Below, piece by piece: positions 54,001-60,000 of a stretch of 64,000 bases of DNA. Position numbers: made by a program. Position 1 is the first letter of the stretch. The number at the start of each line of letters is the position of its first letter. Source of the DNA: a virus (taxonomy: Duplodnaviria > Heunggongvirae > Uroviricota > Caudoviricetes); IMG/VR virus record IMGVR_UViG_2875128709_000003; one strand, 5' to 3'.

Positions 54001-57000
54001 ATGAGGGAGATATACAATGACGAATATAGATAACATTAATTGTAATGAATGTCAATTTATTAATTTAACTGAAGAAGAACAAATAGATAAAAGAATAGAT
54101 CATAAATGTTTAAAGTATAATATTAGAATTGTACATAGTAGTAATAATCCTTATATCAAACATAATTTTATTTTTCCATGTAGACAATGTAACGGAAAAA
54201 GCTTTATAAAAAGAGAGGTGTAATAGTTTGAAAACCCAAGAACAAATAGAAAAACGATTAATAAATATATTAAGAAAACAAGCTGATAGTTTGGAAAAAG
54301 GAGATACGGAAAATATTCTTATCTACAAAACTCTTAGACAAGAAGTATGTGTTTTAGAAGATATTTTAGAATTAAATGTTATTAATAGATAACATAAAAA
54401 GTTAATTTTATCCAAATGCAAGGAGGTTAAAATGATAATTGGTTTAATAATGATTTCGCTATGTTCTTTATTAGTTTTTATTGGAGGATTATGGGGGTTA
54501 ATAGTAGGAATTAAAGAAAAAGAGGTAGCTATCATTATACTTAGTTTAATAGCAGTAATAATAGGATTAGGATTCTCGATAGGGTTCATAGGTCAACTTA
54601 TAACAGTTTAAAATAGGAGGGAAGTTTAAATGATAAAAGTAAATTTTAATTATACAGATAGATTTAATCAATTATGCACTATGGAACATACATATGATAA
54701 AAAAGTTTTAGAAAGTAGAAATGACATAGAATTATTAACAGAGGGATTTATTATGTTTTTAAGAAGTACAGGCTTTAGAGATGAGGATATTCAAAAATAT
54801 GTATTGGAAACTATGAAAAGTAAGTTAAAATAATTTAATAAAGGAGTTGATAATATGGGAGAAGATATATTCTTTGACAAATGTACCGTATATATTGATG
54901 GACAACCTTTCGATGCATCTATAGATAAAACATATTTTGAGAACATAGAAGAAAATCAATCAAATAACATTCAAAATACAATAGAGTTGTTAAATAAACC
55001 TATATCTATAGAATTAGCAAATGAAAGTATTAAAGCATGTAAAAGCTTTATAGAAGAACTAACATATAAAGCACAAATTATAAATCTAATAAATATTTAT
55101 GATAAAACTAAAAAATTTAGAATTAAAAAGAAATTAACAAAAAGAATAAATGAGTTATTAGCTAAACTTTAAGAAAAAAGAGAAAAATTAAGGAGGTTTT
55201 AAGATTGAATAAATATCAAAAACAGCTAAGTAAAGAAATAAAACGATGTTCTCGGATACTAAAAGAGGATTATAAAACAGTAAGAAATCATTACATAAAA
55301 AAAGGAAAAAGTAAAAGATTAGTATTAGATAAAATAAAAACAAATAATATAAGTCATTTAAAACAAATTTTAAAAGAAAATTTTGATATCGATATAAATA
55401 ACAATGATAATACATATAAACCTTTAAACGAAGTTCTAAAAGAACTATCTGATAAGTGGAATGACTATAAAAATTAATTTAATAAAATATTGCTTTTACA
55501 ACAATACAAAATAATTTAATGATAAAATACTTTTTTATAGCAAAAAATCAAAATAAGAGTAGAAAAATTTATTTCCACTCTTATTTTGAAAAAATGTGTT
55601 TAAATGTTCAATAATTGTATATTTTTCTTATGAAAATATACTTATTGATAATTCCATTTATATTTATTATAATAACCATTTAATAAATATATATACATGA
55701 AAAACAAATGAATATTTATATAGAAATAGAAAGGAGATAATATAATGAAATCAACAAAACCAAAATTTAATATAGGTGACAATGTAGAAATTAATTTTAA
55801 TATATTGAAAAAGAAACTAAGAAAACAGCAAATATATCCTCAAGCATTTATGGAAATATCTCAATTTAATAATAATTCAATAGGGCAACATGTAATTACC
55901 AGACTATCAAGAGGTAGTAATGATGTAAATTCTTATAACTTAGATGGAGATTATATGTTTGAAGAGGATGAGATAAACTTACTGCAAAATGCAGAACATA
56001 TATATTATATTTATAAAATAAAGAATAAAGTTATAGAAATATTTCCTGTAACAATAAAAAACAAAGCAGAAAAATATTGTAAAGTGCATAGGGATTGGGA
56101 CTTCATAGAAGGTACTAAAGTTAATACAATACAATTGAGCATCTATGAGAAGGAAAATAAACATATACCTTTTAAAATTGTAAAAAACAGAATATAAATA
56201 AATTTAATGGAGGTAATCTATATGAAAAAAATAAAATTATTTACTCATACAGATTTAGATGGAATAGGTTGTGCTATTTTAGGAATTTTAGCTTATGGAA
56301 AAGATAATATAAACATTGAATATTGTAATTATGATGATGTTAATGAAAAGGTTAAAGAATTTTATATGGGAGCAGAAAAGAATGAATATGATAAAATATT
56401 TATAACAGATATATCTGTAAATGAAAAAATAGCTACGATAATAAAACAGTATTACACAGATGAAACTTATAATCCTGATATTCAATTACTTGACCATCAT
56501 CCAACAGCATTAGAACTAAACAAGTATGATTGGGCGAAAGTTCAAATAAATTTAAATGATAAAGAAAAAACTTCTGGAACTAGAATGTTTTATGACTATT
56601 TAAAAGAAAATAGATACTTAGATTCACATGCAGTAGTATATAATCAATATACTAATATAGAGACATTTGTTGAAATTGTTAGAAAATATGATATATGGCA
56701 ATGGAAAGAAGAAAATTATTTAATTCCTAAACAGTGGAATGATTTATTTTATATAATGGGTAGAGAAGATTTTATAGAAAGTATACTATATAGATTAACC
56801 CACTATGATATTTTTGGATTTAGTGATTTTGATCTGCAATTATTAAAATATAAACAAAGAGAAATTGATAATTATATAAAATCTAAAGATAAAGAATTAA
56901 TAGTTAAAGATATATTAGGATATAAAGCAGGTATTATATTTGGAGAGCAATATCATTCAGAAGTTGGAAATAGATTATCTGAAACACATCCCGAATTAGA

Positions 57001-60000
57001 TTTTATAGTTATTATAAATATGAGTAAGGCAATTAGCTATAGAAACATAGGTAACAAGGTAGACTTAGGAAAAGATGTAGCTGAAATATTCGAAGGTGGA
57101 GGACATCCTAATGCTGCTGGAAGTCCAATAAGTGATGAGTTTAGAAATAAAGTAATAAATGAGATATTTAATCTAAAGTCTTAAAATAATCAAAAATCAT
57201 CTCTTATTTACTCTTGAATACTCATTTATACTATGTTTTTCAAGTATAAAAATGATATAAAATCGGCATTTTAAAGCAATATAAAATAATTTAATAAAAT
57301 AACTTGACAAAATATAGGAATGAGGATATAATTAAAATTGTAATTTGTTCTTATTCCTATATTTTATAATTTAAAACAATTTAATAAATAGCAGAGAGGG
57401 GAAAATTTTATGACAGAAGAAATAAAGAATAATACATATGATGAAAATAGTATTAGTGTTTTAGAAGGCTTAGAAGCAGTTAGAAAAAGACCAGGGATGT
57501 ATATTGGAAGCACAGGTAAAAATGGATTACATCATTGTGTCTATGAAATAGTAGATAATGCAATTGATGAAGCTGTTAATGGTTCTTGTGATACTATTAA
57601 TGTAATTATAAATGAAAACAATTCAGTTACAGTAAAAGATAATGGGAGAGGAATTCCTTGTGGAATACATCCTAAAATGGGTATTCCTACATTAGAAGTA
57701 GTTTTAGCTACATTACACGCAGGTGGAAAGTTTGGTCAAGGAGGTTACAAAACTTCAGGAGGACTTCATGGGGTAGGAAGTTCTGTTGTAAATGCTTTAT
57801 CTATTGAATTTGAAGCAACAGTACATAGAGATGGTAAAATATATCAACAACATTATTCAAAAGGTAAAAAAATTGATGAGGTTAGTATTATTGGTAAAAG
57901 TGATAAAACTGGTACTATAATAACATTTAAACCAGATGATGAAATATTTAGTGAAACAGAATTTAATTATAATACATTATCAAAAAGGTTAAAAGAACTT
58001 GCTCTTTTAAATAAAAAAATTACTATTATATTTGAAGATAAAAGAATGAACAAAGAACAATTGCAAACTTATCATTATGAAGGTGGTTTAAAGGAATTTG
58101 TTAAATTCATTAATGAAAATAAAACACCTATTCAAAGTAAAATAATTTATATTGAAAAAGAATTAGATAATTGCCAAATGGAAATTGCTTTTCAATATAC
58201 TAATAATTATAATGAAAATTTATATTCTTTTGTTAATAATATAAATACTACAGAAGGTGGTTATCATGTTAATGGTTTTTATAATGGATTAACAAAAATA
58301 TTAAACGAATATGCTAGAAATAATGGACATTTAAAAGCAAAAGACGAAAATTTTCAAAAAGAAGATATAAAAGAAGGAATAACATCTATAATATCTGTTA
58401 AGATACCCGAACCTGAGTTTGAAGGTCAAACAAAAACCAAATTAGGAAATACATATGTGCAAAGTATAATTTCAAACACAATAAAAGAATATATGGAAGT
58501 ATTTTTAATTGAAAATAAAGAAATTGCAGAAGAAATTATAAATAAAATTTTATTATCTCAACAATCAAGATTAGCTTCAAAGAAAGCAAAAGAAACTACA
58601 AGGAAAAAGAAAAATAATTCTAATACACTAATACCTCCTAATAAAGTTGCTTTATGTACAAGTAAAGATAAAACAGAAAAAGAATTTATCGTAGTTGAAG
58701 GAGATTCAGCGGGTGGAAGTGCAAAACAAGCTAGAGATAGACGATTTCAAACTATAATGAGTTCCAAAGGCAAAATAATGAATGTTGAAAAGCAAAAAGA
58801 ACAAAAAGTAATACAAAGTGAAGAATTAGCTATTTTTTCATCTGCAATTGGAACTGGCATGGGGGAAGAATTTAATATTACCAAGTTAGAATATTTTTCT
58901 ATACTATTAATGCAAGATGCTGACAGTGATGGAAATCATATAGGTACATTGTGGTTAACTTATATTTATAGATATATGAGACCTCTAATTGAAAAAGGTC
59001 ATGTATATTTTTGTGTACCACCATTATATAGAAACACTATAAATAAAGAACATTATTATACTTATTCAGAAAATGAACAGTTAAACTTTATTTCACAACA
59101 CAAAGATGAAAATATAGATATACAACGATATAAGGGCTTAGGAGAACAAGACCCTGAGCAGTTATGGGAAACCACTTTAAATCCTGAAACTAGAACATTA
59201 TTACAAGTAACTATGGAAGATGCTATTGAAGCAGAGAAAACTATAACGTTGTTAATGGGAGATAAAGTAACACCAAGAAAAGAATTTATAAAAAGTAATT
59301 CTAAAATAAGAACAAGTTTAGATATATAAAAAAAGGGGAGCATAACAATGAGTAATATTAAACAAATTAATATATCAGAAGTGATGAAAACAAAATATCT
59401 AGATTATGCTATGAGTGTAATTATGGGTCGTGCATTACCAGATGTGAGAGATGGTCTAAAATGGGTACACAGAAGAATAATTTTTTCTATGTATGAATTA
59501 GGTATAACTCCTGAAAAAGGATATAGAAAATCTGCTAGAATAGTAGGAGATGTTCTTGGTAAATATCATCCACATGGAGACTCTTCAGTATATGATTCTA
59601 TGGTTAGAATGGCTCAAGATTTTAGTTTAAGGCATCCTTTAATAGATGGACATGGAAACTGGGGAAGTATAGATGGAGATTCAGCGGCAGCGTATAGATA
59701 TACAGAAGCAAAAATGAAAAAGATTACCTTAGATTTATTAAAAGATATAAATAAAAATACAGTTGATTTTATTCCTAACTTTGATGGTGAAGAAAAAGAA
59801 CCTTCAATACTTCCATCAAGATTTCCTAACCTTTTGGTAAATGGAGCTGAAGGTATAGCTGTTGGTGTTGCTACTGCAATTCCACCTCATAATTTATCAG
59901 AAACCATAAATACTGTTATTTATCAAATAAACAATCCTAATTGTGAAATTAAGGAGTTAATTAAAATTTTAAAAGCACCTGACTTTCCTACGGGAGGAGA

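Follow-up and report, generated by a model that had tools for sequence, protein, structure and literature searches.

Which function can be assigned to the stand-alone DHH-family gene at positions 56222-57184 of a viral stretch of 64,000 nucleotides (IMG/VR record IMGVR_UViG_2875128709_000003, Caudoviricetes; hereafter referred to as the window), which belongs to an element of Clostridium botulinum that is best described as a jumbo phage-plasmid? In an earlier note, made from the sequence alone, the product was regarded as an NrnA/Pde2-type nanoRNase, and it was proposed that it might degrade second messengers or the oligonucleotide signals of abortive-infection systems. The analysis presented here points to a different subfamily and a more routine role: with a probability of about 60%, the protein is a short-form NrnB-type (COG2404) DHH-DHHA1 phosphoesterase that likely functions in the recycling of nano-oligonucleotides.

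The open reading frame (ORF) extends on the plus strand from 56207, or from the ATG at 56222, to 57184, and the product starting at this ATG comprises 320 amino acids plus a stop codon. The 320-amino acid product is the likely one, because a GGAGG ribosome-binding site, read directly from the sequence, is located 8 nt ahead of the ATG. It is 100% identical to the NCBI entry 'DHH family phosphoesterase [Clostridium botulinum]'. The gene is organized as follows:

56209-56213, plus strand: ribosome-binding site GGAGG of the DHH gene
56222-56626, plus strand: DHH catalytic domain (around residues 1-135), alternating strand-helix secondary structure with a predicted local distance difference test score (pLDDT) above 90 in the predicted structure
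56246-56263, plus strand: DHH motif I, HTDLDG
56405-56416, plus strand: DHH motif II, TDIS
56486-56503, plus strand: DHH motif III, LLDHHP
56639-56890, plus strand: alpha-helical linker (around residues 140-223) with predicted helices at residues 140-157, 168-179, 181-194 and 202-223
56687-56698, plus strand: motif IV, YDIW, in the linker, with conserved D157, W159 and W161
56894-57181, plus strand: DHHA1 domain (around residues 225-320), which carries S272, R274 and GGGHPNAAG (57095-57121)

All motifs listed in the earlier note, namely DLDG (residues 11-14), D-x-S (D63-I-S65), LLDHHP (residues 89-94) and GGGHPNAAG (residues 292-300), were found in this uninterrupted reading frame, and its description of a DHH-DHHA1 protein of about 320 amino acids is confirmed. 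In an alignment of 32 family members, H9, D11, D13, D63, D91, H92, H93, D157, S272, R274 and G292-H295 are invariant. The protein thus carries the signature of the superfamily, that is DHH motifs I to IV (DxD, D, DHH, D) and the DHHA1 motif GGGH, and it also shows the two-domain fold with a linker. The PHROG families 26954 and 4771, both named 'DHH phosphoesterase', match it at E-values of 1e-26 to 1e-28, and precomputed matches to the DHHA1 family of Pfam (PF02272) exist for some of its homologues. The tail following GGGH consists of 25 residues, and a C-terminal extension is absent. Judged by its sequence, the gene encodes an intact stand-alone DHH-DHHA1 phosphoesterase, which, as already proposed, is distinct from the RecJ-like DHH protein of the element: the latter is encoded separately at 15758-17584 and possesses a RecJ_OB domain.

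The assignment to the NrnA/Pde2 type could not be upheld, as the evidence favours NrnB. Around 1,700 homologues were identified, many of which are named under COG2404 by the Joint Genome Institute (JGI); the JGI name 'oligoribonuclease NrnB/cAMP/cGMP phosphodiesterase (DHH superfamily)' is given to relatives with 58-70% identity. The protein is homologous over its full length to a bona fide NrnB: residues 6-316 align with residues 3-302 of P0136, an 'oligoribonuclease' of Priestia megaterium with 414 amino acids (38% identity, E 4e-72), which is encoded on the chromosome in conserved synteny and has a C-terminal extension of 133 amino acids. A genome scan revealed about 40 chromosomal relatives of 391-447 amino acids (mostly around 420) in Neobacillus, Priestia, Fictibacillus and Bacillus, most of which are found in conserved synteny and whose surplus length is a C-terminal extension of 103-137 amino acids past GGGH (131-137 in the Neobacillus/Priestia subclade). 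The short and the long clade share 46 positions at which the same residue is at least 90% conserved, including all catalytic residues, and in a neighbour-joining tree the window protein falls within a short-form clade of mostly viral or mobile genetic element origin (tails of 21-27 amino acids), which is the sister group of the long-form clade of Bacillaceae. A family profile yielded one strong match among solved structures, the uncharacterised protein 6MTZ of Helicobacter pylori G27 (E 4e-17); chains of NrnA, CnpB, TmPDE, Pde2 and DhhP were matched at E-values of 0.004-0.06 and in the GGGH region only. Among viral structure models in BFVD, the best match is the 'NrnB' of Bacillus phage AR9 (E 7e-20, template modelling scores 0.75/0.80), followed by proteins of large phages of Listeria, Bacillus, Erwinia, Ralstonia and Pseudomonas and of several giant eukaryotic viruses, and the phage homologues are annotated as nrnB, oligoribonuclease or DHH phosphoesterase. 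Myers et al. (2025, PMC12709177) described the helical linker as a feature of NrnB, a basic C-terminal extension of more than 100 amino acids as the hallmark of clade A, and 3'-5' polarity as the diagnostic biochemical criterion separating NrnB from NrnA. Neither the clade A extension nor the clade A lysine (equivalent to B. subtilis K285 in GGGH-P-K) is present in the window protein, in which the latter position is occupied by N297 (GGGHPN).

With the correction from NrnA to NrnB, a different polarity and substrate range are predicted, and cleavage of cyclic nucleotides becomes less likely. All NrnB proteins tested so far act in the 3'-5' direction and process 2-4-mers, and none of them cleaves cyclic di-AMP (c-di-AMP) (Myers et al. 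2025, PMC12709177); the family acts from a free 3' end (PMC12709177, PMC10570053). Long-form NrnB is a general 3'-5' exoribonuclease, and the short forms of Bacillus thuringiensis (Bt) and H. pylori (Hp) favour short RNA (PMC12709177). When NrnB(Bm) was cut at residue 306, pGpG was still cleared rapidly and the enhanced degradation of a 20-mer was lost (PMC12709177); this truncation leaves about the same segment as the region of P0136 that aligns with the window protein. NrnB(Bs) acts on a DNA 5-mer at the speed at which it cleaves RNA, and it lacks phosphatase activity towards 3'-phosphoadenosine 5'-phosphate (pAp) (PMC10570053).

From this placement we infer how the protein might act. H9, D11, D13, D63, D91, H92, H93 and D157 of the DHH domain would form a site for two metal ions (Mn2+/Mg2+), and the DHHA1 domain with S272, R274 and GGGH (residues 292-295) would close over the helical linker, thereby clamping a very short oligonucleotide, from whose free 3' end 5'-mononucleotides would be released. 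The substrates would be RNA, and probably also DNA, restricted to roughly 2-5-mers because the basic extension of about 110-130 amino acids, which long-form NrnB needs for long RNA, is absent. In the cell, the enzyme would catalyse the last step of nucleic-acid turnover, in which nano-oligonucleotides produced by host or phage nucleases are converted to nucleoside monophosphates (NMPs) and their deoxy counterparts (dNMPs) for the salvage enzymes of the element, and it would further prevent the build-up of dinucleotides. This role is supported by genes for nucleotide salvage and reduction in the same window and by nrd genes in the neighbourhood of the homologues in about 11 other viral loci. 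The nanoRNase-type activity suggested in the earlier note is thus also the one for which the placement in the NrnB family argues best.

Several observations weigh against this assignment. The identity to an NrnB of the characterised type is only 38%, and at eight positions, among them F240/H and S272/G, short and long forms have different conserved residues. Residue 297 is asparagine in the window protein, whereas lysine is found here in 82% of the short and 100% of the long forms. The match to the Pfam family DHH (PF01368, residues 3-130) scores 27.9 bits and thus falls just below the gathering score of 28.1, and PF02272 is not reported for the protein at E ≤ 0.01. The viral short-form clade contains no assayed member, and a connection between this clade and the NrnB-C of B. 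thuringiensis could not be confirmed, since the paper and its supplement give neither a sequence nor an accession and no top match is named B. thuringiensis. Furthermore, the gene neighbourhoods are heterogeneous, with about 12 of the 83 viral loci lying beside genes for RNA repair (RlaP, CCA-adding enzyme, RtcB), so that the role could differ. Finally, the host probably has a nanoRNase of its own, and it is an assumption that the phage requires a further one.

Some further observations concern the short forms themselves. The short-form DHH proteins of the Bacillus cereus group (P0151-P0185) are located on contigs of about 115-150 kb from bacterial assemblies, at least one of which is labelled as a plasmid, and the Bacillus gaemokensis contig L144 (120 kb) is identical to the IMG/VR viral contig L069. 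Many short-form NrnB entries filed as genomic in Bacillota may therefore belong to phages or phage-plasmids, which could bear on how the NrnB-C clade is read. In two viral contigs an NrnB-like gene is split into adjacent N- and C-terminal ORFs (L037, 5998-6939; L083, 5995-6929), which may reflect a frameshift, a pseudogene or an assembly error. Apparent tandem DHH paralogues turned out to be an artefact of single-linkage clustering, as there is no match between the DHH protein and the small ORFs upstream.

In the anti-defence reading, which goes back to the earlier note, the protein would act hydrolytically on nucleotides that serve as immune signals, or on linear intermediates of these, and thereby counteract host defence; the target relevant for this host would be the S-adenosyl methionine-AMP conjugate (SAM-AMP). 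C. botulinum possesses a CorA type III-B CRISPR system that uses SAM-AMP as its signal, and NrN, a CRISPR-associated DHH enzyme of Bacteroides fragilis, specifically cleaves SAM-AMP (PMC10600005), which demonstrates that DHH-DHHA1 enzymes are able to degrade such signals. Chemically, SAM-AMP resembles a dinucleotide, with a 3'-5' linkage and a free 3'-OH, so that cleavage to SAM and AMP by a dinucleotidase is conceivable. Phage SAM-AMP lyases are candidate anti-CRISPRs (PMC12255297). The archaeal DHH nuclease MAD degrades cyclic oligoadenylate (cOA), as cited in PMC7824862, and Iyer et al. (2021, PMC7824862) predicted that DHH phosphodiesterases of jumbo phages counter the signals of SMODS/CBASS (cyclic-oligonucleotide-based anti-phage signalling systems) and type III CRISPR. 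The supposition that a DHH-family enzyme had not been described in such a role is therefore not supported, since the role had been predicted for phages and host DHH enzymes acting on cOA and SAM-AMP are known. The host-type promoter of the transcription unit would fit early expression or expression in the plasmid state, and a variable gene hotspot is located shortly upstream. However, the DHH gene itself is conserved and evolves at the rate of the backbone rather than as a gene of a variable island, and the protein shows no special similarity to NrN. Its relatives are NrnB-like, four tested members of which leave c-di-AMP intact and require a free 3' end, which weakens the proposed action on cyclic nucleotides in particular. 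The family is distributed over phages of Bacillus, Listeria, Lysinibacillus and Streptococcus, and giant eukaryotic viruses have proteins of similar structure; this wide range of hosts argues for a general housekeeping function. No known anti-defence genes were seen as neighbours at the viral loci, and no PADLOC family matched at E ≤ 0.01. A cyclic GMP-AMP (cGAMP) screen of 57 phages (PMC11722364) was also considered, but SPO1-type lysates bind cGAMP and do not degrade it, and the screen is uninformative for this family because SPO1 is absent from the tblastn matches. The anti-defence reading has thus lost its specific supports and appears unlikely, and the narrower version, in which the protein acts as a phosphodiesterase-type anti-CRISPR by hydrolysing SAM-AMP of the type III-B CRISPR-CorA system or linear or 2'-5' oligoadenylate-type signals, is very improbable.

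The remaining alternatives derive mainly from the company the gene keeps. In Clostridioides phage AR1086-1, RtcB is encoded immediately upstream of a DHH protein with 47% identity to the window protein, in about 10 viral loci RlaP and then a CCA-adding enzyme (PolyA_pol and HD) or a 311-amino acid protein precede the DHH gene, and in one sister element Tpt1-like (PTS_2-RNA) and RF-1-like genes are found at a distance of about 5 kb upstream. Together with the general 3'-5' exoribonuclease activity of long-form NrnB, this would be compatible with an accessory role in RNA repair, in which the enzyme trims damaged RNA or tRNA 3' ends or clears fragments, allowing the CCA-adding enzyme or RtcB to repair tRNAs that anticodon or acceptor-stem nucleases of the host have cleaved. 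Such neighbours are, however, found in a minority of about 12 of the 83 viral loci and no RNA-repair gene was found near the DHH gene in this window; as long RNA substrates moreover require an extension that is missing from the short form, this role is quite unlikely. A function as a replication or recombination exonuclease, that is a minimal RecJ/Cdc45-like single-stranded DNA exonuclease or helicase cofactor working with the gyrase and polymerase module, is suggested by the position of the gene beside gyrB and gyrA in the window, between these two genes in a distant lineage (L075-77), and after genes for a primase-helicase, a PD-(D/E)XK nuclease and PolIII-alpha in L023-25. This is decidedly improbable, because a complete RecJ including its OB domain is already present on the element, whereas the window protein of 320 amino acids has neither an OB fold nor another DNA-binding addition, and its sequence affinity is to NrnB and not to RecJ (29.9 bits for the NCBIfam model RecJ_archaeal versus a cut-off of 360). 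The link to gyrase is also merely positional, given that the gyrase neighbours were swapped in sister elements while the DHH gene stayed in place. Lastly, the second-best Foldseek match is an archaeal DHH-type PAP phosphatase (8a8k, E 4e-11), and bifunctional pAp phosphatases occur among NrnA homologues; an activity as a phosphatase of pAp or another small molecule is nevertheless extremely unlikely, as NrnB(Bs) lacks this activity (PMC10570053) and a sulfur-assimilation context is absent.

The recycling of nano-oligonucleotides by a short-form NrnB therefore remains the preferred reading, and the question arises how its gene is expressed. The following features surround it:

55478-55744: non-coding gap of 267 nt
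55548-55589, terminator called on the minus strand only: strong hairpin with an 18-bp stem (dG -17.9 kcal/mol, z -5.9)
55645-55673, plus strand: sigma-70-type promoter TTGATA-17-TATAAT (11/12 match) ahead of ORF150 and the DHH gene
55745-56197, plus strand: ORF150 (150 amino acids), the first gene of the unit, with AGGAG at 55732-55736 ahead of its start
57304-57332, plus strand: perfect promoter TTGACA-17-TATAAT of the next unit (gyrB, gyrA), which forms the downstream boundary of the ORF150-DHH unit

The earlier note placed the DHH gene under its own strong promoter, following a terminator and a gap of 267 nt. Gap, hairpin and promoter do exist, but they precede ORF150 and not the DHH gene. 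As the 24 nt between the end of ORF150 and the start of the DHH gene contain neither a promoter nor a structure that would split the pair, the DHH gene occupies the second position in a bicistronic unit, and both genes are predicted to be co-transcribed from the host-type promoter. This promoter is credible because near-consensus sites on the plus strand concentrate in intergenic DNA: five of the seven matches with 11 or 12 of 12 positions are intergenic, although intergenic DNA makes up 8.9% of the window (P about 1e-4). Its -10 region, TATAATAACCATTTA, is kept in three diverged sister elements, in which the -35 region varies; as a recurrent phage promoter, however, TATAATAACCATTTA was rejected, since the six matches with at most two mismatches (2.7 expected) were reached in 12 of 100 shuffles and are not significant. 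The hairpin is indeed strong, but it is not a canonical terminator of the plus strand, because A-tracts flank it on this strand and a canonical T-run follows it on the minus strand only. It may act as a terminator or as an RNA-end structure for the preceding unit; within an array of genes that all lie on the plus strand, it might instead take part in RNA processing, bind a protein or stop antisense transcription. No stable terminator structure was found between the stop codon of the DHH gene and the promoter at 57304, and no riboswitch or leader RNA matched the gap regions in Rfam at E ≤ 1.

ORF150 itself is a lysine-rich, lineage-specific orphan. Its 15 homologues (69-100% identity) all belong to this lineage of C. 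botulinum elements, in which ORF150 is always encoded directly upstream of the DHH gene. No match was obtained in Pfam, PHROG or PADLOC, and the AlphaFold2 model (pLDDT 56) is too poor for a fold search. The idea that ORF150 might represent a detached version of the C-terminal extension of NrnB-A was dismissed, as it shows no similarity to this extension.

The ORF150-DHH pair, a stable cassette of the backbone next to nucleotide-salvage and gyrase genes, is retained in three sister elements with 70-87% identity, which is in the same range as that of the backbone genes p287 and DUF1653 (70-88% overall). GyrB and GyrA, in contrast, are only 28-35% identical between the sister elements (L169, L170, L171), which, compared with 70-88% for the flanking genes, indicates that the gyrase module has been replaced; this looks like a cassette replacement of the type II topoisomerase inside a conserved backbone. 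In L170, GyrB and GyrA are fused to a protein of 1383 amino acids, and in L171 an inserted gene for an RRXRR/HNH endonuclease separates the DHH gene from gyrB. Immediately ahead of ORF150 (about 50200-55480 of the window), the gene content also differs between the sister elements (L004-L007, L169-L171). As the DHH gene is conserved at the backbone rate beside this variable region and a swapped gyrase, it is a backbone gene and not an accessory gene with a fast turnover. Depending on the element, the small ORFs of the hotspot at about 50200-55480 encode a D12-class N6-adenine methyltransferase, a C5 DNA methylase, a PALP enzyme, helix-turn-helix (HTH) proteins, YopX, or the Tpt1-like PTS_2-RNA and RF-1-like proteins mentioned above; the hotspot is plausibly an accessory or counter-defence island.

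Beyond the sister elements, the surroundings of the gene vary. No universal partner gene was found in the 83 viral loci, the widest neighbour cluster being present in 16 of them. Recurrent settings are nrdI-nrdE-nrdF-thioredoxin followed by the DHH homologue two to three genes later (about 11 loci) and the arrangement with RlaP described above, which is combined with the CCA-adding enzyme in L029/L038 and with the 311-amino acid protein in L047-L054/L066/L071/L083. RtcB is the neighbour in the C. difficile phage-plasmids (L001), and individual phages carry CYTH or NUDIX genes at this position, in addition to the primase-helicase, PD-(D/E)XK nuclease and PolIII-alpha and the gyrB..DHH..gyrA settings. 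In about a dozen phage genomes an NrnB-like gene lies directly downstream of RNA-repair genes, and the DHH enzyme may thus be part of an RNA-repair module in some lineages.

The window matches a known plasmid. Positions 50000-64000 (14 kb tested) are 100% identical to plasmid pRSJ2_2 of C. botulinum strain F634 (NZ_CP013709.1, 205,718 bp, circular), with window position p corresponding to plasmid position p + 23002. An IMG/VR viral genome of about 200 kb is a near relative with an identical DHH gene (locus L009); a megablast search with the same 14 kb against GenBank phages gave zero matches, the element being filed under plasmids. All genes are oriented in a single direction. The other genes of interest are:

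Replication genes in the window: DnaB-like helicase, primase-like protein, RecJ and split PolIII-alpha
15758-17584: RecJ-like protein of 608 amino acids with DHH, DHHA1 and RecJ_OB domains, in the replication module
17630-23029: apparently split PolIII-alpha, with a PHP-domain protein (17630-19144) and an NTPase/finger/HhH protein (20396-23029)
19920-20186: NUMOD3 homing-endonuclease-like ORF in the approximately 1.2 kb between the two PolIII-alpha parts
27716-28531 and 31574-32437: ADP-ribosylglycohydrolase-family and prohibitin-family proteins, amid hypothetical genes
57410-61672: gyrase module with gyrB (from 57410) and gyrA (from 59348)
Nucleotide-metabolism genes in the window: NrdD/NrdG, dUTPase, nucleoside 2-deoxyribosyltransferase, NT5C and thymidine kinase

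A guanylate kinase is encoded on the same element shortly downstream of the window. The split of PolIII-alpha may be due to an intron, an intein-free split or a mobile insertion, and the ADP-ribosylglycohydrolase-family protein could reverse ADP-ribosylation by host toxins.

The DHH protein is an ordinary member of a family that is common in large phages; stand-alone DHH-DHHA1 genes are frequent among the large phages of Bacillota as well as among jumbo and giant viruses. If it recycles nano-oligonucleotides, its presence is routine, since large phages that dismantle host nucleic acids would carry their own nanoRNase/nanoDNase for the last step; they would need it because Bacillota, to our knowledge, lack Orn. 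If, in contrast, it acted on SAM-AMP, it would be the first viral anti-defence enzyme of the DHH family and a counterpart of the NrN off-switch of hosts, in a host species that is among the few known users of SAM-AMP signalling.

How does the window protein compare with known systems? With NrnA, Pde2, GdpP, CnpB, PggH and DhhP (COG0618-type) it shares the superfamily, the two-domain architecture, the metal-binding motifs and GGGH. NrN of B. fragilis (PDB 9lq9) and MAD of Sulfolobus are DHH-DHHA1 enzymes that turn off nucleotide immune signals and provide a functional precedent for the idea put forward in the earlier note. Closer in family and size are the stand-alone DHH phosphoesterases of phages and giant viruses (PHROG 26954/4771; AR9; Herelleviridae; Clostridioides phage-plasmids), of which the proteins of C. 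difficile phage-plasmids are 47% identical to the window protein. They are usually encoded in early or middle modules for nucleic-acid metabolism of large phages, with neighbours that vary by lineage (ribonucleotide reductase, RNA repair, replication, gyrase), and no experimental characterisation of them was found in the literature searched. The long-form NrnB proteins of clade A (B. subtilis YngD, P. megaterium) have the DHH-linker-DHHA1 core, the catalytic residues and the 46 conserved positions in common with the window protein at 38% identity, and by analogy the 3'-5' release of 5'-NMPs from short oligonucleotides would be the expected chemistry for the latter, too. Unlike them, the window protein lacks the basic extension of more than 100 amino acids that confers activity on long RNA, has asparagine in place of the clade A lysine after GGGH-P, and is encoded on a phage-plasmid and not at a conserved chromosomal locus, without a link to sporulation. 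The short C-terminus of less than 50 amino acids is a feature it shares with the short-form NrnB proteins of clades B and C (H. pylori, Campylobacter jejuni, B. thuringiensis), and the asparagine after GGGH-x is found alike in the window protein, in 6MTZ and in the published signature of clade B. Three methods gave the unpublished structure 6MTZ, which presumably represents the characterised NrnB(Hp), as the best match among solved structures, although its sequence is only about 21% identical to that of the window protein.

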